NCBI GenBank assembly: GCA_963821525.1
Contig: CAWGED010000004.1
Location: 32,001-96,000 of the forward strand
From: an uncultured Gemmatimonadales bacterium
GTDB lineage: Bacteria > Gemmatimonadota > Gemmatimonadetes > Gemmatimonadales > GWC2-71-9
Direction of reading: 5' to 3'
Length of the DNA: 64,000 nucleotides
The translations under genes and the position numbers were made by a program. How positions within the stretch are numbered: the stretch's first letter is position 1; the number at the start of each line of letters is the position of its first letter. Positions 33,758-50,191 of the stretch are shown here, piece after piece. Under the pieces are notes generated by a model that was not told the origin of the DNA, did no database searches, and saw only the letters and a program-made list of their open reading frames with translations.

Positions 33758-36700
33758 ATGAATCTCGCCGCCGGTAATTGCCGATTTTTCGTCCTGCGCA
33801 CTCCGCTGCTCCCGGTCGAAACCCTACTCGACTGGAGCAGTGGGCTCAGCGCGCGGCTGAGCTACGACCGGGGTGAGTCCCTGGCGGCCGCACTCGCCAC
33901 CGATCGGGCCCTCCTCCGCAGTCGTCTCGCCAAACTCCTGGAACATCCCGAGATCCGGGAGGCGATCTTCGTTGCCTCGCCCAGTCTGGATGAAGCGCTC
34001 GAGCACTGGTTCCGGAACCCGGATAGTGAAAAGGGCCAGAGGGTCGAGTGGGGCCTGGTCCGCTACCTGTGCCGCATGGCCAGTCGGCCGACGCCATTTG
34101 GCCTCTTCGCGGGAATCTCACTTGGCCGGGTCGCGAAGCAGACCTGCCTGAAGATTGGAGGCCGCGAAGCGAACGAGCGGCACACCAGGCTCGACAACGA
34201 CTACTTGTTCGCACTGGTTCAGGCGTTGGCGAGCGATTCAACGCTCCGCGACGCCCTTCGATACCGTCCCAACGACAGCCTCTCTCCGGGCGCGGGGCGC
34301 TTCCGCTACGTCGAGGCCCGGGTCGATGGCACCCTGCGGACCTATCACCTCGTCAGCGCGGACGACACTCCAGAGCTCCGCTCGACCATCGCCAGGGCGG
34401 AGGACGGTGCCACTCGCGCCGAGCTGAGCGAAGCCCTGGTTGCTCACGATGTTGATCGCCTGGAAGCCGATAAGTACGTAGACGAGCTGATTTCGGCTCA
34501 ACTCCTCGTGCCGGACCTGGAGCTGCCTGTCACCGGTCCTGAACCGCTCCCCACCCTGATCCGGGAGCTGGAGGCGCACCCTTCGCAGGAGGCCACTCTT
34601 CAGACTCTCCGGTCAGTCGATGCGACGCTAGCAGAATTCGATCGATCCGGTGGAACTGCCCCCACCCGGTACCGTGAACTGGCCAGGTCGCTGGAGCCGC
34701 TTCCCGCAAAGGCCGAGCTGGCGACTCTTTTTCAGGTGGATCTGGTCAAGCGGGCGCCAGAGCTGACGATCGGAGACTCGGTAGTCCGGGAGATCGACCG
34801 GGCCATCGAGATCCTGCATCGCCTGGGAGGCCTTCGCGGCAGCGACCCTCTGGCCCGATTCCGGGAGGCTTTTCTCGAGCGGTACGAAGAGCGCGAGGTC
34901 CCGCTACTCGAAGCCCTGGACGACGAGGTCGGGCTGGGCGGCCTGATCGCCACCGGAGGTGATCCATCTCCACTGCTCCGGGGAATCGGCTTTCCCGAAT
35001 CGCCGGAGACGGACCACACCTGGGGAAACCGCGAACACCATCAACTGCTGCTCCTTGGAACCGCGTTGCAGGATGGCCGGGAAGAGATCCTGCTCGAGGC
35101 AAAGGACCTCGAACGGTTGGAGATCCCCGGCAAACACCCCCTGCCCCAATCTCTGGAACTGATGGCAAGCATCCTCGCCAAATCGGCCGCGGCGATCGAC
35201 CGTGGCGAATTCCGGCTGTGGGTCGACAGCACCAGCGGCCCTCCGGGAGCGCGCTATCTGGGCAGGTTCTGCCACGGAGATGATGCCCTCGCGAGGGAAG
35301 TGGACGCGTTGCTTCGCGCCGAAGAGCAACAGCATCCGGACGACCTGTATGCCGAGATCGTGCATCTTCCCGAAGGCCGGATGGGAAACATCCTCCTGCG
35401 GCCCCAGCTGCGGAGCCATGAGATCACCTATCTGGGACGGTCGGGAGCGCCCAGAGAGCAGCAAATCCCTGCCAGCGATCTGCTGCTCTCCCACAAGCAC
35501 CGGCAATTCGTTCTGCGCTCCGCCCGGTTGGGCCGGCGGATAATCCCTCGCCTTACTACAGCTCACGCCTACAACCGTGGCCTCGGCGTCTATCGATTCC
35601 TCTGCCTTCTGCAGTTCGAACATGTGGCCGACACACTGGCGTGGGGCTGGGGACCCCTGGCCAGCGCCCCGTTTCTACCGCGGGTGCGATCCGGTCGTCT
35701 CATACTTTGCCCCCGACGCTGGAACCTTTCTCAGAACGAGTGCAACCGGCTTGGCACGCTGACCGGGGAGGAACAGTTCCGGGCGGTCCAGGAATGGCGC
35801 ACCCAAAGGCGCCTGCCCCGGTGGATCGTCCTCGCCGATTACGACAATCGTCTCGCGGTAGACCTGGAAAACGTGCTCTCGGTGGAGGCCTTTACCCATG
35901 CCTTGAAGAAGCGGGACTCGGCAATGCTCGAGGAGACCTTGCTGGCTTCGGAGGACGAGCCGGTCGAAGGTCCCGATGGTCATTATGCCCATGAGATTGT
36001 CGTGCCCATCGCGCGGCCGGTAACGAGCGCGGTCAGGGTTCCCGAAGCGCGGAGACCGGCGACCGCTCCGCAGGTACAGCGCTCGTTTTCACCCGGCTCG
36101 GCATGGCTCTCCATAAAGCTCTACTGCGGCGAGTCCATCGCCGACGAGATCCTCACCGAGGTCATCGGGCCCCTCACCCATCAATTGCTGGAAGACGGCG
36201 CCGCCAAGGGCTGGTTCTTCATCCGCTATGGCGACCCGGCCCTCCATCTGCGCTGGCGTCTCGCGGGTGATCCAGCAGCCCTGTCCGCCACAGCCCGGCC
36301 CGCTGTCGAGGCGGCGGCGGCGCGCCTGCTCGACGAGGGGAAAATCTGGCGGGTGCAACTCGACACCTACCAGCGCGAAATCGAGCGATACGGCGGCCCC
36401 GAAGCGATTCTGCTGGCGGAGCGGCTCTTTCAGGCCGATAGCGACGCGGTCTTTCGGATCATGGAGCTGGTGGATCCTGGGGACGCTGGGCTGGATGAGA
36501 GATGGCGTCTTGCCGTGCGCGGAATGGACCAGCTCCTGGCCGATCTTGGCTTCGATCATCCCGGTCGGAGCGAGTACGCCAAGCGGTGGGTTGAGGAAGC
36601 ATTTGAAAACCCCGAAAGCAGCGCGGGATTGCGGCCCCAGCTCAGCGATCGCTTTCGGAAGGAGCGCGCGCGACTCGAATCGCTGCTCGATCGGACCCGG

Positions 36701-36982
36701 GACCCCGACAGCGATCTGGGTCCTGGACTCGCGATTCTCCATCAGCGCTCAGAAAGCCTCGCCCCAATAGGGGCGGAACTCCGGAGGCTGGAGCAGGAGG
36801 GGCGTCTCCGGGTGCCGGTGGATGAACTGGCCCAAAGCTTCGTTCACATGCACGTCAATCGGCTGCTTCGGTCCGCCCAGCGCCAGCATGAAGTGGTCCT
36901 TCACGATTTCCTGCATCGGCTTTACCAAGCCCAAGCCGCGCGGGCGGCCGCAAAACGGCCAGCGCCGGAGCCGGCGCAATGA
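33758..36982 (+). CDS. lanB: Class I lanthipeptide dehydratase (glutamylation plus elimination domains)
   Basis: LRTPLLP, RMASRPTPFGLFAG, FLPRVR, WLSIKLY, WFFIRY, YQREIERYGG and HMHVNRL. Confidence 0.95.
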   Translation: MNLAAGNCRFFVLRTPLLPVETLLDWSSGLSARLSYDRGESLAAALATDRALLRSRLAKLLEHPEIREAIFVASPSLDEALEHWFRNPDSEKGQRVEWGLVRYLCRMASRPTPFGLFAGISLGRVAKQTCLKIGGREANERHTRLDNDYLFALVQALASDSTLRDALRYRPNDSLSPGAGRFRYVEARVDGTLRTYHLVSADDTPELRSTIARAEDGATRAELSEALVAHDVDRLEADKYVDELISAQLLVPDLELPVTGPEPLPTLIRELEAHPSQEATLQTLRSVDATLAEFDRSGGTAPTRYRELARSLEPLPAKAELATLFQVDLVKRAPELTIGDSVVREIDRAIEILHRLGGLRGSDPLARFREAFLERYEEREVPLLEALDDEVGLGGLIATGGDPSPLLRGIGFPESPETDHTWGNREHHQLLLLGTALQDGREEILLEAKDLERLEIPGKHPLPQSLELMASILAKSAAAIDRGEFRLWVDSTSGPPGARYLGRFCHGDDALAREVDALLRAEEQQHPDDLYAEIVHLPEGRMGNILLRPQLRSHEITYLGRSGAPREQQIPASDLLLSHKHRQFVLRSARLGRRIIPRLTTAHAYNRGLGVYRFLCLLQFEHVADTLAWGWGPLASAPFLPRVRSGRLILCPRRWNLSQNECNRLGTLTGEEQFRAVQEWRTQRRLPRWIVLADYDNRLAVDLENVLSVEAFTHALKKRDSAMLEETLLASEDEPVEGPDGHYAHEIVVPIARPVTSAVRVPEARRPATAPQVQRSFSPGSAWLSIKLYCGESIADEILTEVIGPLTHQLLEDGAAKGWFFIRYGDPALHLRWRLAGDPAALSATARPAVEAAAARLLDEGKIWRVQLDTYQREIERYGGPEAILLAERLFQADSDAVFRIMELVDPGDAGLDERWRLAVRGMDQLLADLGFDHPGRSEYAKRWVEEAFENPESSAGLRPQLSDRFRKERARLESLLDRTRDPDSDLGPGLAILHQRSESLAPIGAELRRLEQEGRLRVPVDELAQSFVHMHVNRLLRSAQRQHEVVLHDFLHRLYQAQAARAAAKRPAPEPAQ

Positions 36983-38310
36983 ACGCGGCGGGTGAATGGC
37001 AACCGCTCCTCGATGGTTCGCTTCGGGGCCAGGCGCTCGAGACAATCGGCGACATCGCGGAAGCTCTTAGACATCCGCCAGAGCCCACGCCAGCCGAGGG
37101 CAACACCAGCGAAACGACTCAGGCCCTCAAGCTTGGGCTCATGACCGGCCGGGCCGGATTGGCTGTGTTCTTTGCCTATCTGGCGGAAGCCGGCCTGCAC
37201 AAAGATGCGGAAGGGCTCGCCTGGGATTTTCTCGAGGAGTCCGAAGCCGGCCTGACGGAACACTGGATGGGCGCGTCACTGTGCGAGGGATTCACCGGTA
37301 TCGCCTGGGCTCACGCTCATCTGCACCAGGCACTGTCGCACGCGCGGGATCGCGGTGAGCTCAAGGAGCTCGATGAAGCGCTTCTCGCCTTGCTGCGCGA
37401 CTGGCCCAGCCCGGATCAGTACGAGCTCTTGTATGGGATGGTGGGCATCGGTGTGTATGCGCTCGAGAGGCTTCCCCGCCCTCGGGCTCGGACGATGCTG
37501 CGACTCATCGTCGAGCGGTTGGAAGAATCGGCCCAACCCATGAAGGACGGCATCGCGTGGAGCTCGCCAGAGAACCCAGCTGGCCCGAGCGGCGAATACA
37601 ACCTTGGCATGGCGCACGGGATTCCGGGCGTGATCGCGTTTCTGGCCCGCACGGCGGCTGCGCCGCTACAGCGCAGGAAGGCTCTCTCCCTCCTCGGGGG
37701 CGCAGTCAGCTGGCTCCGCGGCCAGCGTCTCACTCCTGAGGAGGGTGGTGGGTTTCCCGCCTCCATCACGCCCGGGGAGCTCCCCACTCCTACCCGACTC
37801 GCCTGGTGTTACGGCGACCCCGGCGTCACAACTGCGCTGCTGCCCGCAGCCAGGATGTTGGAGCTCCCCGAGCTTGAAAAGGAGGCGGTCCAGGTCGCAA
37901 TCAGCGCGGGCAAGCGCACGACAGAAGAGAGCGGGGTGGTGGATGCCGGGCTGTGTCACGGTGCCGCCGGCGTCGGACACCTCTACCACCGCCTCTACCG
38001 GGCCACCGGCGACTTGCGACTGAGAGCGATCGCTCGCCGATGGTTTGCTCATACTCTCGAACTCCGCCGGCCGGGGACGGGGGTCGCCGGGTTTGCCCCG
38101 GCAGACTCGCCGGAGAATCAGAAAGTGAACGCCGGAGAACGAATCGACGCCGGCGTCCTCTCGGGGACTGCAGGAATAGGGTTAGCCCTTCTTGCGGCCA
38201 CTACGCCGGTGCCGCCACTCTGGGACCGCCTGCTCCTGGCGGATCTCCCTTCGATGGCGGTGCGCGCGGGACGGAATCACTTGGCGGCTTTAGCGCCGGG
38301 ACGGCGATAG
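36979..38310 (+). CDS. lanC: Lanthionine cyclase
   Basis: GMAHG, WCYG and GLCHG zinc/catalytic motifs. ATGA overlap with lanB. Confidence 0.95.
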   Translation: MNAAGEWQPLLDGSLRGQALETIGDIAEALRHPPEPTPAEGNTSETTQALKLGLMTGRAGLAVFFAYLAEAGLHKDAEGLAWDFLEESEAGLTEHWMGASLCEGFTGIAWAHAHLHQALSHARDRGELKELDEALLALLRDWPSPDQYELLYGMVGIGVYALERLPRPRARTMLRLIVERLEESAQPMKDGIAWSSPENPAGPSGEYNLGMAHGIPGVIAFLARTAAAPLQRRKALSLLGGAVSWLRGQRLTPEEGGGFPASITPGELPTPTRLAWCYGDPGVTTALLPAARMLELPELEKEAVQVAISAGKRTTEESGVVDAGLCHGAAGVGHLYHRLYRATGDLRLRAIARRWFAHTLELRRPGTGVAGFAPADSPENQKVNAGERIDAGVLSGTAGIGLALLAATTPVPPLWDRLLLADLPSMAVRAGRNHLAALAPGRR

Positions 38311-38375
38311 ATGAGTACAGGCAGTGCTGCCGGCCTGGGCGCCCAGCCGAAACTCGAACCCAACTGGAGGAACCG

Positions 38376-38555
38376 ATGACCAGGAAGACCACGAAGGGCT
38401 CCAAGGCCCCCCCCCGGAAGTCCAAGCGGCTCAGTCTCAGCAAGAAGACCCTCAAGGACCTGAACGTTTCCGGCACCGGTCCCCAAGGTGGGATGGGGAT
38501 AAAGGTCCCGCTGAGCCATTGTACCACTTGTCCCGCCAGCTGTCGCAAGGGCTGA
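38376..38555 (+). CDS. lanA: Lanthipeptide precursor MTRKTTKGSKAPPRKSKRLSLSKKTLKDLNVSGTGPQGG|MGIKVPLSHCTTCPASCRKG
   Basis: GGAGG RBS at 38366-38370, LxLxKxTL leader motif, GG cleavage site, and a core with 3 Cys and 4 Ser/Thr, directly after lanC. Confidence 0.9.
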   Translation: MTRKTTKGSKAPPRKSKRLSLSKKTLKDLNVSGTGPQGGMGIKVPLSHCTTCPASCRKG

Positions 38556-38562
38556 GGCTGTC

Positions 38563-38657
38563 AGGGAGGCGGTCCTAGTCGCAATCGCCGCGGGTGAGCG
38601 CACCACGAGGAGAGCGGCGTGGTGGATGCCGGGCTCTGTCACGGTGCCGGCGGGGCG
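38563..38657 (+). pseudogene. Diverged lanC fragment (homologous to 37879-37974)
   Basis: Reads REAVLVAIAAGERT-EESGVVDAGLCHGAGG versus KEAVQVAISAGKRTTEESGVVDAGLCHGAAG in lanC. Confidence 0.8.
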
Positions 38658-38817
38658 ACTCTCCGGGGGATGACGGCCAATCTGGCCGCCGTTGGAGCGG
38701 CTGTAGAGCTGGAGCAACAGTAGGAGTGGCCGTCTTCCGGACTCCACTTGCGGCCAGCGGTCCAGACCGCATACTACGTGAGCGGGCTCACCTTTTTCAA
38801 AGCTTGGCGCCACCACG

Positions 38818-39854
38818 ATGCAGGCTCTCTACGGGCGCCCGGTCTTCGTGGTCGAGGGCGACACGTTCTTCTGGGAAGACGTGGTGCTCGACGCGATCCG
38901 GCGCGGTAAATGGGCACAGCTGGAGCAGGAGGTTCGTGAAGGATTCGCCGCCTTGGAGGAGTTCGACTCCGCCGAGGACGACGAATTCGATGTGGCGGTA
39001 GACGAGGCTGCGCAGGAGTTCCGCTACGGTCGCGAGCTGGTCACCGCTCACGAGATGGAGGAGTGGCTCGCTGCGCGCGAGGTTAGTATTCGAGAGTGGA
39101 TGGACCACATCCGCCGTTCCGTTGCGCGGGCTCGCACCACCGAGGGATTGGCCGCCCTCGTAACACGCCATCCGATGGACCCGGATCAACTCGCCGAAGC
39201 GCTCCGGGTGGATCTCATTTGTTCCGGAGCAGGAGAGGAGCTCGCTGTCGCAGCTCGCACGACGCGCGGCCGCTGCAGCTGCCGCTGCGAGTTCAGCCAC
39301 ATCTGAATTGCCGTCTGAAGGCGGGCCGGTACCGACCAGTACTCCCTCCCGGACTCTCAGTCGAGCTGGCCCAGGAGCGGATCCACCTGCTGGCCCGGAT
39401 TGAAGAAGGCGCGGAGCAGTTCCGGAGAAGCTCGATCACGCCCGAGGCCATCCGGCGCGAGATCGGGCATCACCACACCGAATGGATCAGGATCGACTGC
39501 CGGGCTATCGCCTTCGATGATGAGGCTGGAGCCCGGGAAGGAGCCTTGTGTCTGAGGGAAGACGGGCTCCCGCTCGATGAGGTCGCCGCCGCGGCTCACG
39601 CGACAGTGTCCGAATCGCGCTTCTATCTCGACGATCTCGACCCCGAAGTCCGCCCGATGTTTCTGGCGGCGCGGCCGGTCGACCTGCTGGGACCCATCCT
39701 CTTCGAAGGAGCCCATACGCTGTTCCGCGTGACGGACAAGGTGATGCCCTCCGAGCAGGACCCGGAAATTCTGCGGCGGGCCGAAACGGGCGTTGAGGGG
39801 CGCCTCGTGGCCGCTCAGGCCCAGCAGCGAGTGAAGTGGCAGTTGGCCTGGTGA
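38818..39854 (+). CDS. PpiC/parvulin-related putative peptide-maturation or export chaperone (frameshift in the 39250-39310 area)
   Basis: EAAQEFRYGRELVTAHEMEEWL and IAFDDEAGAREGALCLREDG resemble PpiC-like proteins found beside C39 ABC exporters. The family call is an inference. Confidence 0.55.
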
Positions 39855-39859
39855 CCGGA

Positions 39860-42800
39860 ATGGATACCGATTCCCTCGACGCGGTACTCCAGAGTCTCCC
39901 GGTGCTCGGCGGTCTTCCGCACGATGTGCGGGAAATCGTGGTCGCCAGTTTCGTCCCTGCCAGCTACACCTTTGGCCAGGCCATCGTCCAAGAAGGCGAT
40001 GCATCTGACGCGCTGTACGTACTGGTCTCCGGCCGGGTGCGGATGGTCAAGCGGGGAGAGAACGGAGACGAGATCTCCCTCGGCGCGCTCCGGCCCGGGG
40101 AGACCTTCGGCGAAGGCGGCTTCAGCGACCACACGGTCCATCCTGCCACCGTGCGAGCCAGCGGGGACGTGGAGGTGGTCCGCCTCGATCGATCGGTCTT
40201 CGACGCGCTCCTCCGGCGGCGGCCCGAGGTGCGCCAGTTTTTCGAGCTTCAGTCCCGCCTCCGCAACCTGCAGTTCTTCTTCCGGCAATTCACCGTCTTC
40301 GCGAAACTCCCGCCCGAAGCTCTGAACGACCTGCTCGCCAACCTGGAACCGATCGAGTATCGCAAGGGCGACGTGGTCATCCGCGAGGGGGATCCTCCCG
40401 GCCCGATGTACATCATCGAAGAGGGTCGCTGCCGGATCCACGTCGGAGTGGACGGCCGGCGCCGCAACGTCGCGTTCCTGAGGCGAGGGGAGTTCTTCGG
40501 CGAGTTGTCGGTGATCCGCGATGTGCCGCGGGATTCAACCGTCGAGGCGGTGACCCAGTGCCGCCTGCTGCGGCTCACCCGGGAGACATACCAGGAGCTC
40601 CTGGAGCAGCACCAGGCCTTCCGGGACGAGATCGAAGGGCGTGTCGCGCAGTACGATTTCATGCATACGGCGCAGATCCCGATCGACATGTTCCGGGAGA
40701 TGCTGCCAGCCGATGCGTCGGTGCTCAGCAAGGTGGGAGACGACCAGGTCGACCAGGACCTGACGCGCATGTGGGCGATCCCGCCTCGTCCCGAGCCCGC
40801 CCAGGCTGGAGCGGAACCCGCCCCCGCCCCCGAGCCGGAGGTAGCCCCCTTCGCCGACGATGAAGGGCGCTTCGTCAAGCGAAAGAAACGGATCCGCAAG
40901 TTCCCCCACGTCTTGCAGATCGACGAGATGGATTGTGGGGCGGCGAGCCTGGCGATCGTATGCCGGCACTACGGCAAGGCAGTGAGTCTCGCGCGGATTC
41001 GTCAGCTCAGCCACACCAGCCTCGATGGGACCAGTCTCCGGGCGATCTGCCAGTCCGCGACTGAACTGGGACTCGCTGCCCGGGCGGTGAAGGCCTCAGT
41101 CACCAACCTGGCCCAGATGCCGCTCCCCGCCATCGTGCATTGGGACGGTAATCACTGGGTGGTGCTGTACGATGTGGATGAGACCCACGTCAGGGTTTCC
41201 GACCCGTCCAGTGGCCGGCGCCGGCTCACTCGAGCGGACTTCGAGGCAAAATGGAGCGGCTACGCGGCACTGTTCGATTACACCACCGAGTTCGAGAAGA
41301 ACAAGGAGACCAAACTCGGGATCGCCTGGCTGCTCCCCTTTTTCAAGCCACACCGGGCCCTGCTCCTCCAAGCCGTCGGCCTGGCGCTCATCGTGAGTCT
41401 GCTCCAGATGGTCATCCCGGTCTTTACCCAGGTCATTGTGGACCGGGTCCTGGTCGAGCGCGATCTCAACCTGCTCAACATCCTGATCGCAGGAATGGGC
41501 GGGGTGATCGTCTTCACCCTGCTGGCCACGGTCATCCAGCGCTACCTCCTCAGCTTTGCCGCAGTCCGGGTCGACTCGGCAACGCTCGACTTCCTCACCC
41601 GGAGGCTGCTGAGCCTCCCGATGAACTACTTCAATACCCGGCGCACCGGGGACATCCAGCGCCGGCTACAGGGGATCTGGCTGGTCCGCGAGTTTCTGGT
41701 AGAGCACGGCGTAGCAGGGCTCACCGCCACCGCTCAGCTGTTGGCCTCGGTCGGCTTGATGCTGGTGTACAGCCCGCTGCTGACGCTGGTCTTCCTGTCC
41801 ACGGTGCCGCTGTTCGTCCTGCTGATGCGCTACTCCTCGAGCTGGCTTTTCCCGCTCTACTCCGAGCTGGAGGAATCGCACGGGAAGTACCAGTCCTTCC
41901 AGATCGATGCCATCAAGGGCATCGAGACGGTGAAATCCCTGGGCGCCGAGTCTGCCTTCCGGGACCTGATGCTGGCCCAATTCAACGGCGTCGCCCGCAA
42001 GCGATTCAAGGCGGATTTCACCCTGATGACCTACAACGGTTCCATCTACACGGTGACGCTGCTGTCCGTGGTGCTGTTCCTCATGGTGGGTGCCTACCAG
42101 GTGATGAACGGGCGGCTGTCGATCGGCGGGCTGGTGGCGTTCAACTCTCTGGTGGCGCTGGCCAATGCCCCGCTTCTCACCTTGCTCACCCTGTGGGACA
42201 ATCTTCAGCAGGCCACGGTCTACCTGAACCGGCTGGACGACATCTTCCAGCAGGAGCCGGAGCAGGGCGAGGATCGCTCGCGCCTCCTGCCGGTGAAGTC
42301 TCTCGAGGGGAGGATCAGTCTCCGCCACTTGGGCTTCCGCTATGGTGGTCCCGAGTCTCCCCCGATTCTGGATGACATCACCTTCGACGTTCCACCCAAC
42401 ACCATGGTGGCGATCGTCGGCCGCAGCGGATGTGGGAAGACCACCCTGATCAAATGTCTGGCCGGGCTGCTGGAGCCGACTGAGGGGACCATCCTCTACG
42501 ACGGGGTGGACCTCAAGTCCCTCAACTACCGGGATCTCCGGCGGAAGATCGGGTTCGTGCTGCAGGAGAATCACCTGTTCGACGACAGCATCGCCCGTAA
42601 CATCGGCTTTGGCGAGGAGGAGCCCGACTTCGACGACGTCATGTGGGCGGCCCAGACCGCTAACGCGCGGGAGTTTATCGAGCGGCTCCCGATGGGGTAT
42701 GACACCCGGATCGGGGAGTCGGGCATTGGCCTTTCGGGCGGGCAGAAGCAGCGCATCGCGATTGCGCGGGCCATCTACACCCGGCCTCCGGTCCTCATCT

Positions 42801-43039
42801 TCGACGAGGCTACCAGCGCGCTCGACGCCGAATCGGAACGCGCGGTAAAGGAGAACATCGATCAGCTGCTCGAGGGGCGCACCTCGTTCGTGATCGCCCA
42901 CCGGCTCAGCACCGTGCGCGATGCCGACGTGATCCTGGTGCTGGAGAAGGGCCGGCTGGTCGAGAGTGGCACCCATGATGATCTGATGAATCGCCAGGGG
43001 CTCTACTACTTCCTGGTCAGCCAGCAGTTGGGACTGTGA
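39860..43039 (+). CDS. Peptidase-containing ABC transporter: two cNMP-binding domains, C39 peptidase, TMD and NBD
   Basis: Two FGE-type cNMP domains. C39 QIDEMDCG, HWVV and DP. Walker A GRSGCGKTT, LSGGQ and DEATS. Confidence 0.95.
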   Translation: MDTDSLDAVLQSLPVLGGLPHDVREIVVASFVPASYTFGQAIVQEGDASDALYVLVSGRVRMVKRGENGDEISLGALRPGETFGEGGFSDHTVHPATVRASGDVEVVRLDRSVFDALLRRRPEVRQFFELQSRLRNLQFFFRQFTVFAKLPPEALNDLLANLEPIEYRKGDVVIREGDPPGPMYIIEEGRCRIHVGVDGRRRNVAFLRRGEFFGELSVIRDVPRDSTVEAVTQCRLLRLTRETYQELLEQHQAFRDEIEGRVAQYDFMHTAQIPIDMFREMLPADASVLSKVGDDQVDQDLTRMWAIPPRPEPAQAGAEPAPAPEPEVAPFADDEGRFVKRKKRIRKFPHVLQIDEMDCGAASLAIVCRHYGKAVSLARIRQLSHTSLDGTSLRAICQSATELGLAARAVKASVTNLAQMPLPAIVHWDGNHWVVLYDVDETHVRVSDPSSGRRRLTRADFEAKWSGYAALFDYTTEFEKNKETKLGIAWLLPFFKPHRALLLQAVGLALIVSLLQMVIPVFTQVIVDRVLVERDLNLLNILIAGMGGVIVFTLLATVIQRYLLSFAAVRVDSATLDFLTRRLLSLPMNYFNTRRTGDIQRRLQGIWLVREFLVEHGVAGLTATAQLLASVGLMLVYSPLLTLVFLSTVPLFVLLMRYSSSWLFPLYSELEESHGKYQSFQIDAIKGIETVKSLGAESAFRDLMLAQFNGVARKRFKADFTLMTYNGSIYTVTLLSVVLFLMVGAYQVMNGRLSIGGLVAFNSLVALANAPLLTLLTLWDNLQQATVYLNRLDDIFQQEPEQGEDRSRLLPVKSLEGRISLRHLGFRYGGPESPPILDDITFDVPPNTMVAIVGRSGCGKTTLIKCLAGLLEPTEGTILYDGVDLKSLNYRDLRRKIGFVLQENHLFDDSIARNIGFGEEEPDFDDVMWAAQTANAREFIERLPMGYDTRIGESGIGLSGGQKQRIAIARAIYTRPPVLIFDEATSALDAESERAVKENIDQLLEGRTSFVIAHRLSTVRDADVILVLEKGRLVESGTHDDLMNRQGLYYFLVSQQLGL

Positions 43040-43141: not shown

Positions 43142-44356
43142 ATGCCCGACGAATCCGCTCAACCCTACCTCGACACCACACCACCCCACTGGGTGGCGCG
43201 GGGGTTGGCGCACGTCATCATCGCCGCCTTTGCGCTGACTCTGGTAGCGGCGGTTCTGGTGAAGGTGCCCGAGACAGTCTCGGGACCTTTTACCCTGGTG
43301 CCGATCCGGGGAACCGATCCGGTACGGGCGGTGAAGAGCGGGGTGCTGGTCGAGGTGCGCGTCGCCGAAGGCGACAACGTGACCCGCGGCTCGACCCTCT
43401 TCCTCCTCCGCTCTGCCAGCATGAGCGATCGGGCGGCGGACCGGCTCACGCTCGAAAGCCAGTTGCGGGCTAATGAGCAGCGGCTGACCATCCTCAAGAG
43501 CCAGTATGACACCCGCAAGCGCTCGGATGAGGCAGAGGGGCGGCGGCTGCAGAACCGGATCCAGTTTCTCGAGGGGCTGATCACCTCCAAGAGCAAGCGC
43601 TTGGCCCTCACGAAGATGCTGGCAGATAGCTCCTCTTCCGGCGCCAAGCGGGGAGCAATCGGCCAACTCGAAGCGAGCAGGTTGGAGCTGGAATACAGCA
43701 CCCTCCAGGAAGAGGTTGACGGGGCGCGGAACGATCTCGCCGAGGCGAGATCCGACATTACCAGGCTGGAGGAGGACGGCAAGGCGAGGGACCTGGAATA
43801 CGAAGAGACCCGGCGAGGCCTTACCGAAGCCATCGAGGCCGGCCGGATCCGGGCCACGTCTCTCCAGCGGGATCTGGTCAATGCCACGGAGGGCGGCTTC
43901 TCGGTGATGGCCCCTTGCGACGGTGCGGTGCTGCGGTTGCACGTCAATGCGCCCGGGGCGGTGGTGCAGGAAGGGGACATTCTGAGCGAGATGGGTTGCG
44001 CCGGAGACCGCCTCCGGGGTGAGCTGCTCGTTCCGGAAGCCGGAGTTGCCCAGATTCGGCCGGGTCAGGGGGTCAAGCTCCGCTACGACGCCTTCCCCTA
44101 TCAGCGCTATGGCGTGCGGTTTGCCACCGTACGATGGCTGGGACCCGCCGGGTCGACCGCCCGGGACAGCGGAGAATTCCGCGCCCTGGTCGATCTGGCC
44201 GACGATTCCATCCGGGTCCACGGCCAGCTGCAGGCCTTGCTGCCCGGCATGGGTGGGCGCGCCGATATCGTGGTCGGCAGGCGATCCCTGATGAGCTACG
44301 CCTTCGAGCCGATTCGCGCCTTGCGGGAAAACTTCGCGGAGCCACCCCCTCGATGA
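43142..44356 (+). CDS. HlyD family secretion membrane-fusion protein
   Basis: N-terminal TM segment, biotinyl-lipoyl halves, coiled coil, DAFPYQRYG and LLPGM. Confidence 0.9.
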   Translation: MPDESAQPYLDTTPPHWVARGLAHVIIAAFALTLVAAVLVKVPETVSGPFTLVPIRGTDPVRAVKSGVLVEVRVAEGDNVTRGSTLFLLRSASMSDRAADRLTLESQLRANEQRLTILKSQYDTRKRSDEAEGRRLQNRIQFLEGLITSKSKRLALTKMLADSSSSGAKRGAIGQLEASRLELEYSTLQEEVDGARNDLAEARSDITRLEEDGKARDLEYEETRRGLTEAIEAGRIRATSLQRDLVNATEGGFSVMAPCDGAVLRLHVNAPGAVVQEGDILSEMGCAGDRLRGELLVPEAGVAQIRPGQGVKLRYDAFPYQRYGVRFATVRWLGPAGSTARDSGEFRALVDLADDSIRVHGQLQALLPGMGGRADIVVGRRSLMSYAFEPIRALRENFAEPPPR

Positions 44357-45372
44357 ATGAACCTGGCGTCAACGGTGAACGCCAACGGGAGTGGCACCAC
44401 ACGCTCGAGGATTTCCAGAGCGACGACGAGCCCATGGCCACCTGCCTCGGGCTCGCCCGGATCGCGGCCCGTACCGAGCTGCCGATCCTCATCCTGGGAG
44501 AGACCGGCACCGGGAAGACCCTGCTCGCCCGGGCCGTTCACAACTCCTCCCGCCGCTCAACCCATCCCTTCATCGCCTTCAACTCCGCCGCCCTGAGCGA
44601 TACCCTCCTCGACAGCCAGCTGTTCGGCCATGAGAAGGGAGCCTTCACCGGCGCGATTCGGAGGGTCAAGGGGAAGTTCGAGCTGGCGGATCACGGGACG
44701 CTGTTCCTCGACGAGATCGCGGACATGAGCCCGGCGGCACAGGCCAAGATCCTGCGCGCCGTCGAGTATGGCGAATTCGAACGCCTCGGCAGCGAGCAAC
44801 TGCTCCAGGCCGATGTGCGGCTTATCTCGGCGACTCACCTGCCGCTGGCCCGTTATCTGGAGACCGACCACTTTCGGAAGGACCTGTTCTACCGGATCAG
44901 CGGGATCACCCTCAGGCTCCCTTCGCTGCGGCAACGCCCCAACGATCTCCGCACCATCATGGCCGCCGCGATCGCCACGGCCAGCGCGGCGCTCAACAAG
45001 TCGATCGTTGGGCTGAGCCGGCCCGCCGCTGACCGGCTCCTGAGCTATGACTGGCCGGGGAACCTTCGGGAACTCCAGCGGGTGATTCACACCGCCGTCG
45101 CGATCACCGAGGGTGAAGTGATCCCACCGGAGGCGATCCTCCTGGGAACCTCGGTGGAAGCGGTCCACGCCGAAGAAACCAACGGCACGGGAGACCACCC
45201 GACGCCGAGTTCCGCGCTCATTGCCGCTCCTCCTTCGGACCTCTCCCTCCGGGCCGCCGAGTTGCGGCACATCCATGCAGTCCTGGATTCCTATCACGGC
45301 AACAAGCGCCGGGCGGCCCGGGCCCTCGGCCTCTCTCGCTCCACCCTGGATCGGAAGCTTCACGGGGAGTGA
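44353..45372 (+). CDS. Sigma-54 enhancer-binding protein (AAA+ and Fis HTH) lacking a regulatory domain
   Basis: GETGTGKT, LFGHEKGAFTGA, FLDEI, WPGNLREL and HTH NKRRAARALGLSRSTL. ATGA overlap with hlyD. Confidence 0.92.
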   Translation: MNEPGVNGERQREWHHTLEDFQSDDEPMATCLGLARIAARTELPILILGETGTGKTLLARAVHNSSRRSTHPFIAFNSAALSDTLLDSQLFGHEKGAFTGAIRRVKGKFELADHGTLFLDEIADMSPAAQAKILRAVEYGEFERLGSEQLLQADVRLISATHLPLARYLETDHFRKDLFYRISGITLRLPSLRQRPNDLRTIMAAAIATASAALNKSIVGLSRPAADRLLSYDWPGNLRELQRVIHTAVAITEGEVIPPEAILLGTSVEAVHAEETNGTGDHPTPSSALIAAPPSDLSLRAAELRHIHAVLDSYHGNKRRAARALGLSRSTLDRKLHGE

Positions 45373-45376
45373 GCCA

Positions 45377-45424
45377 GTCTCGTCCTGGGACTACGGTGCC
45401 ATGCTGGGACCAACATTGGTTTCA
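45377..45424. promoter_or_regulatory. Candidate bEBP upstream activating sequences (AGTCTC-N5-GGGACT and TGGGAC-N8-GTTTCA)
   Basis: Imperfect palindromes conserved in copy 2 (46413-46462), about 85-140 bp upstream of the -24 box. Confidence 0.55.
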
Positions 45425-45506
45425 GATTGGGCCCCTCAGCGCAGTCGCTCTCCAGCCTGATTCGGGAACTCGTGCTGCAGACTCAACTTGCAGTTTGGTT
45501 CAGTTG

Positions 45507-45521
45507 CGGCACGCCACCTGC
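45507..45521 (+). promoter_or_regulatory. Sigma-54 -24/-12 promoter CGGCACGCCACCTGC
   Basis: GG-N10-GC with a GGCACG core, conserved in both copies, next to the bEBP gene. Confidence 0.75.
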
Positions 45522-45603
45522 CTAAGAAGCGGTCCATCAGGCCGGAGCCGCCGGCCGCGATCAACTCTCTGCTTCAACATCGCAAGTTCACTCAGGAGGA
45601 TGT

Positions 45604-45720
45604 ATGGCTGCCAAGAAGAGCCTCAAGGTCAAGGACCTTCCCCGCAAGGCAATCGACTCGAAGAAGGCGGCCAATGTGAAGGGTGGATACACGAAGTTTA
45701 CCAAGCCTCGCACGCCGTGA
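45604..45720 (+). CDS. Double-glycine peptide A1 MAAKKSLKVKDLPRKAIDSKKAANVKGG|YTKFTKPRTP
   Basis: AGGAGG RBS, VKGG motif, and a paralog in copy 2. Confidence 0.85.
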   Translation: MAAKKSLKVKDLPRKAIDSKKAANVKGGYTKFTKPRTP

Positions 45721-45777
45721 AGAGCGAATCGATTGAAGCGTAGTGACCGGACGTATTTTCCCCCTCGAGGAGGAAGT

Positions 45778-45894
45778 ATGACGAGCAAGGACAAAGAAGT
45801 TCGCGATCTGCCCGAGCGTAAGATCCCCGACAACAAGGCGGATCAGGTCAAGGGCGGCGCCATTGCCACGGCGAAACCCAAGAACTCGCTGTAA
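45778..45894 (+). CDS. Double-glycine peptide B1 MTSKDKEVRDLPERKIPDNKADQVKGG|AIATAKPKNSL
   Basis: GAGGAGG RBS, VKGG motif, and a paralog in copy 2. Confidence 0.85.
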   Translation: MTSKDKEVRDLPERKIPDNKADQVKGGAIATAKPKNSL

Positions 45895-45907
45895 GGCAGC
45901 CCATCCA

Positions 45908-45941
45908 GCGATCCCCGTTTGGCCACCCCGACGGGGATCGC
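45908..45941 (+). terminator. 11-bp hairpin GCGATCCCCGT...ACGGGGATCGC between B1 and C1 (no U-tract)
   Basis: Perfect stem, conserved in copy 2 with a different loop. Confidence 0.55.
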
Positions 45942-45970
45942 CGGCCCTCTGATCAAACAGGAACTGGCCC

Positions 45971-46108
45971 ATGACACCCCAGCAGGACCGTAAAGCCCAA
46001 AAGGATGAGAGAGCCGCCGATGAGGTGATTCGGCTGGAAGATCTCGCGCCGCGCGGGGACATCAAAGGCGGAGCCAAGCTTCGCTTCGGCGAAGCGGCGG
46101 CGAAGTAA
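45971..46108 (+). CDS. Double-glycine peptide C1 MTPQQDRKAQKDERAADEVIRLEDLAPRGDIKGG|AKLRFGEAAAK
   Basis: EDL...IKGG motif and a paralog in copy 2. Confidence 0.75.
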   Translation: MTPQQDRKAQKDERAADEVIRLEDLAPRGDIKGGAKLRFGEAAAK

Positions 46109-46160
46109 CCGCGCGGACACTCTTCGGGCGGTTGATCTTCCAGGGAAGGAACCTCAGCCA

Positions 46161-46253
46161 TCAGCGACTCGCGGTGAGTCGCGTGAGTGCCCGCGCGGCT
46201 GCCGCACGACGCAGTATCAGCAGGGAATCAGCCTTCTCCCACGCCCGCACTAC
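46161..46253 (-). pseudogene. 3' stub of a homolog of the BTAD-TPR gene (matches 47206-47298)
   Basis: Reads VVRAWEKADSLLILRRAAAARALTRLTASR* versus VVRAWEKADSLLIPRRAGAARALTRLTASR*. Confidence 0.85.
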
Positions 46254-46549
46254 CTCTCCCTTCGAAATTTCCCCGAATAGCTGATTGCGGTGCGGCGCCC
46301 AATAAATCCATCCTCAGGCTGAACCGACCGGCTGGCCCGTGGCCTCGTCCTCCCGCTCCACCCTCGACCGCAAGCTTCACGGGGATAACCGACGCGGAGT
46401 CCGGAGTCTTGCAGTCTCGTCCTGAGACTACGGGCCCGATGTTGGGACCAGCGTTGGTTTCAGATTCGAACCGCCAGCTCCAACCGAGATCGGGCGCTCA
46501 GGACGGGAAGTGAGGATCACTGACTTGACTTGCGATTTCCTCTCCGGTG

Positions 46550-46564
46550 CGGCACGCGGTCTGC
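46550..46564 (+). promoter_or_regulatory. Sigma-54 -24/-12 promoter CGGCACGCGGTCTGC
   Basis: GG-N10-GC. It differs from copy 1 only in spacer positions. Confidence 0.75.
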
Positions 46565-46647
46565 TTTAGAAGCGGTCACAAGGCCGGAGCCGCCGGCCGA
46601 GAGCAACTCTCCCGCTCCAACCCGCAGTTCAAATTTCAGGAGGATGT

Positions 46648-46764
46648 ATGGCCGCCAAGAAGAGCCCCAAGGTTAAGGATCTGCCCCGGAAGGCGATTGA
46701 CCCCAAGAAGGCGGCCAACGTCAAGGGTGGATTGATCCAGCGGCAGAAGCCCCGCAAGCCGTAA
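46648..46764 (+). CDS. Double-glycine peptide A2 MAAKKSPKVKDLPRKAIDPKKAANVKGG|LIQRQKPRKP
   Basis: AGGAGG RBS. Leader 26/28 identical to A1. Confidence 0.85.
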   Translation: MAAKKSPKVKDLPRKAIDPKKAANVKGGLIQRQKPRKP

Positions 46765-46824
46765 TAACTGAGCGACCGACTGTAGCGAAGTGACCGGACG
46801 TATTTTCCCCCTCGAGGAGGAAGT

Positions 46825-46941
46825 ATGACGAGCAAGGACAAGGAAGTTCGCGATCTGCCCGAGCGTAAGATCCCCAACACGAAGGCGGATCAGGTCAAGG
46901 GCGGCTCCGTTGCGACGACGCTGAAGAAGCCGACCCGGTAA
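46825..46941 (+). CDS. Double-glycine peptide B2 MTSKDKEVRDLPERKIPNTKADQVKGG|SVATTLKKPTR
   Basis: GAGGAGG RBS. Leader 25/27 identical to B1. Confidence 0.85.
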   Translation: MTSKDKEVRDLPERKIPNTKADQVKGGSVATTLKKPTR

Positions 46942-46955
46942 GGCAAACCCTTCCA

Positions 46956-46989
46956 GCGATCCCCGTTGGCCACTTCCGACGGGGATCGC
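46956..46989 (+). terminator. Hairpin between B2 and C2
   Basis: Same 11-bp stem as in copy 1. Confidence 0.55.
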
Positions 46990-47018
46990 CGGCCCTCCGA
47001 TCAAGTAGGATCTGGCGT

Positions 47019-47180
47019 ATGACACCCCAGAACCGTAAACCCCAGAAGGAAGAGAAAGCCGCCGATGATGTCATTCGGCTGGAGGATCTCGCGCCTCGCG
47101 GGGACATAAAAGGCGGAGCCAAGCTTCGCTTCGGTGAATCGACAGCGAAAAAGCCGCGCGGTCGCTCCCTGGGAGGCTGA
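47019..47180 (+). CDS. Double-glycine peptide C2 MTPQNRKPQKEEKAADDVIRLEDLAPRGDIKGG|AKLRFGESTAKKPRGRSLGG
   Basis: AGGA RBS. Paralog of C1. Confidence 0.75.
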   Translation: MTPQNRKPQKEEKAADDVIRLEDLAPRGDIKGGAKLRFGESTAKKPRGRSLGG

Positions 47181-47205
47181 TTTCCAGGGAGGGAAACCCG
47201 GCCGA

Positions 47206-50191
47206 TCAGCGACTCGCAGTGAGTCGCGTGAGCGCCCGCGCGGCACCCGCTCTCCGCGGTATCAATAGCGAATCAGCCTTCTCCCACGCCCGCACCACCT
47301 GGCGGTAATGCGCTGCCGCGCTGTCTCTTCCGCCGGCTGCTTCCCATGCCTCGCCCAGTCGTTCATGCAGGTCGGTCCGCGTCACATAGAGATTCCCGCC
47401 TTCGAAACTTCCGCGAATCGCCGCCTGCAGGATCGGAATTGCGTCCTTGGGCCGTTTGAGCCGCAACCAGATTGCTGCCAGCTCATAGTTGGTCCGGCTG
47501 AACCCGTCGCTCGGCGAGGTCATCGCCTTTTCGAACGCCTGAGCCGCCTCATATGAGAATCCCCGAGACGCGAGCAACAACCCACGGATGTGGTAGTGCA
47601 ACCGCGCATCCCGGGCAAAACCGCTCGCCTCGGCCAGAGTACGGACAGAATCGGCCAGGACGCTGAGCCGGATGGTATCACCCATCGCAGCAAGCGCGTC
47701 GGCCATGTGGGTCCAGGCCCAGACCCGGTTCCGGGCCAGCGCCGAAGGATCCTCAAACCCGGAAGTGGATTTCGCGATCGAATCGAAGAGGGCAGCCGAC
47801 GCCTGATACTGCCCGCGGTCGAACAGCACCTGGGCCTCGAGGTAGGCACTGGTCGGCGCGCTGCCGGGTGGAGTGGGCTCCGCAAGGTCCCGCCGGTAGC
47901 GGTCTGCTAAATCCAGCGCTTCGGTGTATCGCCCTTCCTGCCGCAGTACGTTGGCCAGCTGCCAGCCCGCTTCCAGCCGGGTCTTGGGCGGCCCGCTCTG
48001 CAGCTCCACCCGCATGATCTGCTCCGCCTCGCCATAGGCGCCGGTGAAGAGATGGATGGCCATGAGAGTGTGGGCAGACTGGAAGCCGTCCGACCCGAGT
48101 GAATCGGCCACATGGAGGGCCGCGAGCGAACTGTCGGCCCAACCGCGCTGGGCCAGGACATTGGCATAGTATCGCCAGGCCTGTGCGGAGCCGGGTTGGA
48201 GCCGGGTCCAGAGTCGCGCGACGCCAAGCGCTCCGGCGATCGAATCGGCCATCAGGTACGACTCGCTGAGCGCCACCAGGCCCTCGCAGGCCATACAGCG
48301 CGGGCTGCGCCCCACCAGACCGAGAGAGTCCCGCGCGATCACTTCGTTCAATGGCTCCCGGGCACCGGCCCAATCGAGAGCCAGCAGCGCACCCTGCCCC
48401 GTGTACAGATACCCTTCGAGCTCCGAGGGATAGCGGACGGTAAGCGTCTCAGCGATGGCACGAAGCGCCGGCGACGAGTTGGCCAGGGCCCAGCTCGCCC
48501 CGATGAGGAGGCGCTCCCGGTCGCTGGCGCCCGCAGACAGGCTCACCGCCCGGCGGAGCCTGCGGAAGTATTCCGTGCGAGTCCCGGCTGAACTGTTGGC
48601 GTAATAGAACTGCGCCATCGCAAACGCAGAATCCTCCTTAAGAGCCTTGGCGAAGAGCTGCTCGGCCTGAGGAAGATTGCTCGCGAAATAGGTTCGGAGT
48701 CCCTCCTCGTAATAGCGATACGCCGCCACCGACCGGGTGGAGACACTGGCCAGCGAGCCCTCTGGAGCGCTGGCACCCAGATCCTGCGCCAGCCGCCGTG
48801 TCCCGGTATCGGCCAGTGCAAAGAGATCGTTCCCCTGAACGGTGTACGCCTGCAGCACCGCGCCGCTTCCCAAGTCTACTCGGCGGAGATCGAGCCTTAG
48901 CTTGTCCGGGCCCACCTGATAGAGAGCGCCGTCCACCAGCTCATTCGCGCCGGCCTTTCGAGCCGCCTCGACGACGACAGCGGCCGTGTCTCCTCCCGTC
49001 GCGAGCTGGCGGAGCAGCTCGTACATCCGGGCGCTGCTTACCACCTGCACACCGCTGGCGCGGGCCAGGTTGGTCGCCAGCATGTCGGAGAGCGGCAATC
49101 CGGCGACCGGCTTTCCACCGGGCTTGGTGTAGTCGGTGATCCGGCCGACCGCGACCAGCGTCGAGGTGCCGGAGGAGGTCAGAGCACTTGCCCGATTCGC
49201 AGTGGCACCCCCTCCCGACGTCAGGCGGCGTCCCGCCAGCCATCCCACACCGAGCAGCACCGCGGCCACTACGGCGACCAGGCGGATACCATTTCTGCCC
49301 CGTGATCCGGCGACGCCGTATTGCGGGGACTTCGGGCCCCGTCGCCGAGCTGATTGCCGCCCACCCACTCGTATGCCTGGAACCGGTGACCGCTTCGCTG
49401 AGGAATTCAGTTGGTGATGTGGGTTCCGGAGGAGCGGGCGCGACTGGCGTGGCCACCGGCTTAAGTCCGGGATCGCTCCGGGCGACACGGCGCAGCTCCT
49501 CGGCTAAGGCGATCACTTCCCGGTCGGGTGGGAGATCAAGCTCCTGTTGCAGCAGGGCCTCGTAGACCTTCGCGTGCTGGAGTGCTGCGGCCTGATCACC
49601 CTGCGCCACGTGAGCCCGCATCAGGGCGACCGCGACCTTGGCATTGAGAGGATCCAGTCCCGCGAGCTTCTTGAACCAGCCTACAGCGGCACGATGGTCG
49701 CCCGCCGCGGTTGCGCGCTGGCCCAGCTGTTCGAGCAGGTCGCCGTATTCCCGAACCAGGGTCTGCCGTTCCTGCTCGCTCCAGCGCTCGAACTCCTCGG
49801 CGCCGGGGAGATGGAACCCGTCGAGGAAGGGGCCACGGTACAACTCGACCGCGCGCTCCAGCGCCCCGGCGGCCAGCGCCGCCCGGAATTCCACCACATC
49901 AGCAGAAATGATTTCGGGATTCAGCCGGAGGTCTTTGACCCCGAGAAAGGCCTCCTCGGAGCCGAGGTCCTGACGCAAGGCGTAGAGGGCCTGGGTCAGG
50001 GCGCGCCGGGCCCGCTCTTCGTCGGCGTCGGGCCAGAGGAAACCGATGATTTTGTCCCGGGTCAGTCCCCTCTCACCCGCCACACCCAGCATCGCCAGCA
50101 GGGCAAGACGGCGTGGCTGGGCCGCCGCCCCAGCCATCGGGCGTCCAGCCTGCGTGACGTAAAGTGCACCTAAGACATTGATGTAAAGCAA
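47206..50191 (-). CDS. SARP/BTAD-domain transcriptional regulator with TM segment and TPR-rich C-terminus (frameshift near 49290)
   Basis: N-terminal TRDKIIGFLWPD, LYRGPFLDGF and FERW; then a hydrophobic segment, a TolB_N-like region and helical repeats. Confidence 0.85.

Follow-up and report, generated by a model that had tools for sequence, protein, structure and literature searches.

Peptides with a double-glycine (GG) leader include the pheromones of the ComC/ComAB/ComDE system, the class II bacteriocins and microcin V, in which a strain-variable, unmodified core is handled by a peptidase-containing ATP-binding cassette (ABC) transporter (PCAT) and an adaptor; hydrophobic residues are expected at positions -4, -7 and -12 of PCAT leaders. 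Among operons under sigma-54 control, transcription of pspA is driven by PspF. According to PMC7057263, PspF and HrpS, activators that lack a sensor domain, are restrained in trans, the former by PspA and the latter by HrpV. Cyanobacterial group I/II 'bacteriocin' clusters, as set out in the main text of PMC3140520, combine SurA, a long-type CAP_ED-C39 ABC transporter and HlyD, and a KIXDLXYLEX10GG leader motif was reported beside them; the word 'sigma' is absent from that main text. HetC of Nostoc PCC 7120, a cNMP-C39 exporter, is described in passages of PMC10986499 as binding ppGpp and was proposed to export a signal peptide. The locus analysed here lies in a 64,000-nucleotide stretch (the window) of contig CAWGED010000004.1 from an uncultured Gemmatimonadales bacterium and comprises six small open reading frames (ORFs) for GG peptides, designated A1, B1, C1, A2, B2 and C2, near genes for a C39 exporter with two cNMP-binding domains, a HlyD-type adaptor and a sigma-54 activator (Table 1).

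A duplicated operon with variable A and B peptides and a conserved C peptide

The six ORFs were verified at their coordinates on the plus strand, as were the strong AGGAGG ribosome-binding sites claimed for A and B in the original prediction; C is preceded only by AGGA. B1 was counted from its ATG (38 amino acids); the ORF list begins it at a TTG (53 amino acids). The identity counts first given were exact, the A1 and A2 leaders being identical at 26/28 positions and their cores at 4/10, and the B1 and B2 leaders at 25/27 and their cores at 3/11. The strict small-ORF pattern DL...[VI][KR]GG was found six times in 45300-47500, against a mean of 0.001 and a maximum of 1 in 1000 simulated sequences with the same dinucleotide make-up as the real region, and a strict scan of the whole 4.3-Mb genome gave eight matches, six of which came from this operon pair. 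Such an accumulation does not arise by chance.

The ORFs were found to form two sets of three, an arrangement absent from the original prediction, within a tandem duplication of approximately 1.04 kb (85% column identity on alignment of 45300-46340 with 46320-47330). Each copy comprises the tail of the activator gene, a promoter region, A, B, a hairpin, C and the tail of a convergent TPR gene; the activator gene is whole in copy 1 and a scrap in copy 2, and the TPR tail in copy 1 is a scrap. The same duplication was seen in the same-genus locus L024 and in several metagenome contigs (e.g. L144, L145, L147 and L151), and a single operon copy in L016 and L122. Sequencing indels were rejected as the source of the core differences in the window, as the A1/A2 and B1/B2 cores are of equal length and align without gaps; identical cores recur across independent contigs.

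The allele set was drawn from 37 metagenome loci and four loci of the same genus in addition to the window. After removal of open-ended ORFs, of L142 and an L024 allele whose cores look frameshifted, and of one B allele with a longer leader, it comprised 18 distinct alleles of A and 14 of B, all of this genus-level type. The ratio of nonsynonymous to synonymous polymorphism (pN/pS) was 0.11 for the A leaders (18 alleles) and 0.19 for the B leaders (14 alleles); the leaders are thus under purifying selection, which shows that A and B are coding. In the cores pN/pS was 1.13 (A) and 1.23 (B), rough estimates from equal-length, non-identical, ungapped and non-independent pairs which cannot separate drift from positive selection.

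The prediction of diverse, Cys-free, Lys/Pro-rich cores was borne out: KP is present in 25/25 distinct cores and Cys in 0/25, and all are 9-11 amino acids long. Asp or Glu was found at 0/259 core residues, where approximately 15 would be expected from random codons, although shared ancestry weakens this test. The sequence IATAKPK occurs behind an A leader (in L136) and behind a B leader (in B1), with codons that differ at 6/7 positions. A and B cores also pair variously, YTKFTKPRTP being found with three different B cores, a pattern which suggests recombination. The A and B cores diversify under a compositional constraint.

Judged by its sequence, C is a separate kind of gene. Across phyla it has kept a hydrophobic run followed by LxDLxP-x5-GG and xKxxFG, on both sides of the predicted cut, with pN/pS values of 0.21 before GG and 0.03 over the 7 codons after it (16 close alleles; L016, L168 and L170 dropped). 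Purifying selection acts on C to either side of its GG. The original prediction of six equivalent precursors with conserved leaders and variable cores therefore stands for A and B and fails for C, which is conserved on both sides of GG. The early stop of the short form, C1, recurs in L135, L147 and L151. There are 1429 clusters of C homologues, and the 120 listed carry no Pfam domain and are named only 'hypothetical'. C2 was predicted to be mostly disordered, with a single 4-residue helix, in a low-confidence model (mean pLDDT 64.6), and no solved structure resembling C was found. None of the six peptides had a match at E <= 0.1 in Pfam and NCBIfam (including TIGR01847, NHLP and Nif11), and only unnamed clusters were found in the ESM Atlas. 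In agreement with the suggestion of an undescribed family, no family model in Pfam, NCBIfam or the homologue clusters names them.

Export cassette, sigma-54 activator and their distribution

A C39-domain scan of species genomes gave 543 relatives of the exporter, the best 80 of which were examined; many of these 80 loci are cut by contig ends. They come from Gemmatimonadota, Acidobacteriota, Methylomirabilota/Rokubacteria and Verrucomicrobiota, with one bin labelled Alphaproteobacteria, and the cassette is spread over four phyla. The closest exporter relatives among the best 80 of 543 are from Gemmatimonadales genomes. The conserved order is a PpiC-like gene, the exporter, HlyD and the sensor-less sigma-54 activator, followed by the A-B-C operon; the PpiC-like gene was found in 71 and the activator in 60 of the 80 loci.

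The exporter carries the sole C39 domain (PF03412) found in a genome-wide scan, and its QIDEMDCG, GNHWVV and VSDP motifs (catalytic Cys, His and Asp) and Walker motifs are intact. As predicted, the leaders co-occur with cNMP-C39 exporters: the leader profile matched 10 of 61 relatives, each of which has the exporter, and 0/49 exporter-negative genomes, and the latter carry the weight since 8 of the 10 positives supplied training sequences. As the genome has one C39 domain, its motifs are intact and the leader family is confined to exporter-positive relatives, A and B look like substrates of the exporter. Their leaders have V, A and I at -4, -7 and -12; C has I, R and E, of which only the residue at -4 is hydrophobic. 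The adjacent-exporter claim is supported for A and B; the treatment of C as one more variable precursor is not supported. No longer protein bearing an A or B leader was found among 8000 scored candidates of 108-2000 amino acids, which is weak evidence. TolC-type channels and rpoN are encoded in the genome. It is probable that A and B are cleaved and exported without modification by the neighbouring LanB.

The activator consists of an AAA+ domain with GAFTGA and a helix-turn-helix domain, with no N-terminal regulatory domain; in the related loci listed its start lies 15-35 residues ahead of the AAA domain, leaving no room for a sensor domain. The copy-1 promoter matches 9/11 positions of the well-known sigma-54 -24/-12 consensus. 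Of 54 related loci, 27 have a similar motif (at least 9/11) ahead of the first small ORF detected, compared to 0.8 in shuffles. This is likely an undercount, as the first ORF was missed in many Verrucomicrobiota loci and the search window fell short of the promoter. Neither the promoter nor the lack of a sensor domain in the activator was noted in the original prediction. Three repeats behind the activator gene, spotted by eye and without a statistical test, have similar counterparts 3' of the activator in related loci and are likely to be binding sites for it. The promoter/terminator scan gave no sigma-70 promoter and no intrinsic terminator within the operon, and no sigma-54 motif of at least 9/11 was found upstream of LanB, the Cys-containing precursor, the PpiC-like gene or two distant GG peptides. 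Control of the operon through sigma-54 by the adjacent activator is highly probable. The hairpin between B1 and C1 received no intrinsic-terminator call in the terminator scan; the B-C hairpin likely lowers the expression of C. A long stem-loop was also noted after C1 (46109-46200, z -4.0), with a weaker counterpart after C2 (z -0.3, different span).

C tightly co-occurs with the activator. Of the 51 activator loci that leave at least 1 kb of room, 48 have C; the remaining three are L070 and L080, which have a variant with KLTFG after GG, and L113, which has a frameshifted copy. C was present in none of the 20 loci without an activator match, although only six of these have at least 1.5 kb after HlyD. 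Among 201 genomes of the family the exporter was found in 15 and C in 11, all within the 15. Of the four genomes with the exporter but no C, three lack the activator subfamily (best score < 290 bits vs > 500), as do three further exporter-positive genomes; C is absent from 6/6 exporter-positive genomes without that subfamily, five of which keep other GG peptides. In a Verrucomicrobiota order (121 genomes) exporter and activator mark the same 11 genomes, 10 of which have strong C matches, and in the eleventh the locus ends at a contig edge. These genome sets overlap the locus set, and related genomes are not independent. A variant of the cassette occurs at L106:14660-19264, where three copies of C, a LanC-like gene and cores with Cys follow the activator.

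In relatives, the same leader class was found to carry cores of 5-48 amino acids with very different sequences, some of which resemble pieces of Hcp, the type VI tube protein. When 102 distinct cores were scored with a profile of five Hcp proteins against 5100 shuffles, nine, one of them low-complexity, exceeded the 99th shuffle percentile (1 expected) and four beat every shuffle; the matches tile positions 2 to 158 of Hcp (Table 1). A GG-peptide core elsewhere in the source genome, on contig C10, showed a weak likeness to the last Hcp strand, above all 50 of its own shuffles. Pfam searches with 58 related peptides gave one relevant weak match (T6SS_HCP, E 0.005) and three at chance level. The six window peptides did not match the Hcp profile, and an Hcp gene was not found in the source genome, which is 81% complete. 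Such cores point to a route from pieces of structural proteins to exported peptides.

Three further core types were noted. The first looks helical and ends in ...K..ISNIR / AIAQNFK (L067:4450-5461, L066:2182-3156, L093:15831-15989, L119:1495-1659 and L040:9938-10096); a likeness to the C-termini of type III needle proteins was considered and not confirmed, as two of these cores gave no PDB match at E <= 10. The other two are motifs shared by distant genomes, namely NHN[EQ]T[LV] (L076:7462-7914 and L132:7979-8137) and LPAVQK (L070:15524-15727, L075:14228-14431 and L080:15455-15649), the latter presumably as in DUF1559/prepilin-like proteins.

Part of the stretch was contained in 20 of 21 listed sequencing runs (19 RNA, 10 studies), none of which held half of its words. 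Contigs from four RNA runs, each of a different study, match all three ORFs of both copies (45567-47381) with few differences, which hints that A, B and C are transcribed; these are assembled contigs of relatives which carry no information on strand or level, and carry-over of DNA is possible. The exporter, HlyD, activator and TPR genes were represented in the four runs by short conserved-motif pieces with loose ends or had no cover, a comparison unsuited to ranking expression as the runs were chosen via the small-ORF stretch.

Proposed mechanism and competing explanations

The best explanation overall, to which a probability of roughly 0.45 is given, is that two sigma-54-driven A-B-C operon copies supply A and B for export in unmodified form and C as a feedback regulator. 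The biochemical steps are ones we infer. The activator would drive the operon from the sigma-54 promoter; A and B would be cut after Gly-Gly and secreted unmodified, via the exporter, HlyD and a TolC-type channel, as 9-11-residue Lys/Pro peptides; C, made in smaller amounts, would be the missing trans-regulator of the activator, and its cleavage or export would tie transcription to the pump, for which nucleotide gating is likely. That the A and B cores, which vary between strains, serve outside the cell as signals or identity tags and not as toxins is suggested tentatively, at somewhat less than even odds. By analogy with known activators, it is possible, if doubtful, that C in its intact form would bind the activator and dampen it until cleavage or export takes C away, so that precursor synthesis would follow the activity of the nucleotide-gated pump. 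The most novel form of the proposal is speculative and rather unlikely: a secretion-coupled sigma-54 switch in which C would restrain the activator until the nucleotide-gated C39 exporter cuts C in two, and which would thereby switch on a library of short, freely recombining exported peptides (Lys-Pro tags in this locus and, in relatives, pieces of Hcp and other motifs that recur) as a vocabulary common to abundant soil bacteria of four phyla.

Several observations weigh against the best explanation. Core pN/pS values near 1 are also expected under neutral drift, and the variable pairing of A and B cores may partly be an artefact of assembly through the near-identical B leader. The conserved cassette yielded no receptor, sensor kinase or immunity gene (tblastn with our own queries and small-ORF scans, the flanks not being annotated gene by gene), nor was a histidine kinase or response regulator found among window genes 30739 to 51285, unlinked receptors not having been searched for. 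Neutral, acidic, Gly-rich and Hcp-like cores across phyla would be odd for receptor-specific pheromones. In genome G229 the activator is accompanied by one GG peptide but by no canonical C, and genome G369 has a weak, leader-only C match without exporter or activator. The tie between C and the activator could be plain linkage, since C sits in the operon that the activator drives. Co-occurrence does not separate regulation from linkage, and a receptor for the A and B cores was not found, so the antagonist, C-as-signal and passive-tail explanations given below remain alongside.

It is unlikely, but worth weighing, that A and B are exported unmodified with short, cationic, Pro-rich cores that act as antagonists, either antimicrobial or directed at competitors, and whose diversity stems from an arms race. 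This would fit their charge, their Pro content and freedom from acidic residues, the many alleles and the repeated duplication, and PCAT substrates are often bacteriocins. The cores are, however, hydrophilic and only 9-11 amino acids long (down to 5 in related genera), the cassette contains no immunity gene that was seen, and cores elsewhere in the family are neutral or acidic.

Also unlikely is that C, with A and B as in the best explanation, is itself a conserved exported signal whose released xKxxFG N-terminus acts as a ligand, or a regulator of the exporter. Conservation is strongest just after GG (pN/pS 0.03), DL and [VI]xGG are retained, and there is one C per operon. On the other hand, conservation in C reaches the hydrophobic run before DL, which A and B lack, C is missing from the six exporter-positive, activator-negative genomes although five of them have other GG peptides, and its ribosome-binding site is weak and lies behind a hairpin.

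Improbable, too, is that the cores are near-passive tails, with the Lys-rich leader or the act of export doing the work (a pump gauge or dummy substrate). Core pN/pS is about 1, and in relatives almost any sequence, including Hcp fragments and low-complexity repeats, may stand behind the leader; the fixed length of 9-11, KP in every core, the lack of Asp and Glu in 259 residues and the encoding of IATAKPK by different codons all speak against it.

The original prediction allowed that A and B might be dehydrated at Ser or Thr by LanB, which is very improbable and was not upheld. LanB and LanC do lie 7-12 kb upstream and Ser or Thr is present in 22/25 distinct cores; against this, the A2 core has neither residue, LanB was found in only 2/80 loci (1/36 full 20-kb loci), and L024 keeps the duplicated operon with no LanB/LanC match. 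The Cys-containing precursors have their own class I motif: ahead of the DL...GG element they carry a K[RK]L[SA]L[SN]KxTL stretch that is absent from A, B and C. Weak matches to NF038153, a model of class I leaders, were given by 4/6 tested Cys precursors (E 0.007-0.04, below cut-off), and the window's own Cys precursor, like A, B and C, had no match at E <= 0.1. By class I lanthipeptide criteria A and B are thus outsiders: they have no core Cys and no leader-motif match, and LanB rarely co-occurs with them. The lanthipeptide module is likely a lineage-specific passenger which shares the exporter and lies outside the conserved cassette.

Finally, the idea that the ORFs are untranslated chance frames in a repeated intergenic element, or an assembly artefact, prompted by the apparent indel errors in neighbouring genes and the absence of proteomic evidence, can practically be dismissed given leader pN/pS values of 0.11-0.21, conserved ribosome-binding sites, starts and stops, 1429 C homologue clusters and the duplication in independent assemblies.

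Neighbouring features and comparison with known systems

Table 1. Features of the window (positions counted from its first nucleotide) and, with locus names, Hcp-fragment GG peptides of related loci
Feature	Position	Strand	Details
LanB	33758-36982	+	part of lanthipeptide module 33758..38555
LanC	36979-38310	+	
Cys-containing precursor	38376-38555	+	
PpiC/SurA-like partner gene	38818..39854	+	split by two single-base insertions
ABC exporter	39836..43039	+	two cNMP-binding domains and C39 peptidase domain
HlyD-type adaptor	43142..44356	+	PF13437; TIGR01843 below cut-off
Sigma-54 enhancer-binding protein	44353..45372	+	339 amino acids; PF00158 AAA+, PF02954 Fis-type HTH
Three imperfect ~17-bp repeats	45376..45434 (45376, 45395, 45418)	+	right behind activator gene
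Sigma-54 -24/-12-like promoter, copy 1	45507..45521	+	97 nt 5' of A1 ATG
ORF A1	45604..45720	+	38 amino acids; 28-residue GG leader and core YTKFTKPRTP (core from 45688)
ORF B1	45778..45894	+	38 amino acids; 27-residue GG leader and core AIATAKPKNSL (core from 45859)
Hairpin between B1 and C1	45908..45941	+	stable, z -3.17, no U-tract
ORF C1	45971..46108	+	45 amino acids; short form of conserved LxDLxP..GG-xKxxFG peptide
Duplication junction, TPR-gene 3'-end scrap	46161-46250	-	
Duplication junction, activator-gene 3'-end scrap	about 46325-46388	+	junction spans 46161..46388
Sigma-54 -24/-12-like promoter, copy 2	46550..46564	+	98 nt 5' of A2 ATG
ORF A2	46648..46764	+	38 amino acids; leader and core LIQRQKPRKP (no Ser, Thr or Cys)
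ORF B2	46825..46941	+	38 amino acids; leader and core SVATTLKKPTR
Second B-C hairpin	46956..46989	+	z -2.68
ORF C2	47019..47180	+	53 amino acids; long form of conserved C-type peptide
Hcp-fragment GG peptides	L020:15443-15622, L056:6578-6772, L053:8418-8579, L068:14397-14579		
Hcp-fragment GG peptides, further	L074:15300-15521, L068:7276-7455, L075:14228-14431, L043:16125-16310		

The assembly may carry indel errors in genes next to the operon. The insertions in the PpiC-like gene, judged relative to two same-genus genomes, are possibly assembly errors, and a BTAD ORF (48941-50191) and a TPR ORF (47206-49488), which overlap in different frames on the minus strand, are probably one gene split by a frameshift in the same manner. 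Homologues of the PpiC-like protein matched TIGR04500 weakly in 61/71 cases and Rotamase_2 in 6/71; TIGR04500 is listed in a table of PMC8939145.

Around the lanthipeptide module, genome G002 was observed to have two further Cys precursors where the window has rearranged lanC scrap (38556-38817), as well as two precursors upstream of lanB which are absent from the window. In L030 (contig C5 of the source genome, about 586500-587100), far away from any LanB, the leader region of the lanthipeptide precursors is weakly matched three times in tandem. Two lone GG-leader peptides were also found in the source genome far from the exporter, at L028:7954-8106 (contig C3) and L029:8114-8275 (contig C10), and the contig C3 paralogue matches TIGR01847 weakly (E 0.19).

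The cassette is common in uncultured soil bacteria, and its small genes are missed by standard pipelines. The substrates of cNMP-C39 exporters are an open question even for HetC, and the locus gives exact 9-11-mer candidates that can be synthesized and a predicted cut site for this exporter class. If C does regulate the activator, sigma-54 transcription would be coupled to the working of a peptide exporter in a new way. Searches of open PMC full texts and bioRxiv gave no paper on this cassette. The present analysis adds the distinction between A/B, which vary, and C, which is conserved, together with the estimates of selection, the exclusion of LanB and the finding of Hcp-fragment cores.

The locus resembles ComC-type pheromones, class II bacteriocins and microcin V in its GG leaders, PCAT with adaptor and strain-variable cores; it differs from them in its much shorter cores and sigma-54 control, and in that no histidine kinase/response regulator or immunity gene was seen in the cassette. 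With class I lanthipeptides it shares, through the neighbouring precursors, the terminal DL...GG element and likely the exporter, but neither Cys nor the LanB-type leader motif occurs in A, B or C, and LanB is absent from 78/80 related loci.

As in the PspF/PspA and HrpRS/HrpV pairs, the activator has no regulatory domain and a candidate trans-regulator lies within the driven operon. Unlike PspA and HrpV, C is a peptide of 45-60 amino acids, predicted to be disordered, of unrelated sequence and with a predicted protease site, and is a candidate regulator by co-occurrence. HetC, as presented in PMC10986499, is likewise an active C39 exporter with an N-terminal cNMP-type domain, the loss of which alters transcription; it has no adjacent HlyD and no known substrate, whereas in the window HlyD, candidate substrates and a transcription activator adjoin the exporter.

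The cyanobacterial group I/II clusters of PMC3140520 share with this locus a nucleotide-binding domain before C39, HlyD and arrays of small GG precursors, and possibly a rotamase-like partner, and the A leader has the KxxDL-x14-GG spacing of the KIXDLXYLEX10GG motif (the spacing holds for A). Unlike those clusters, the locus has two cNMP domains, a built-in sigma-54 activator and promoter, a conserved C gene, Lys-rich leaders with cores of 5-11 amino acids and non-cyanobacterial hosts.

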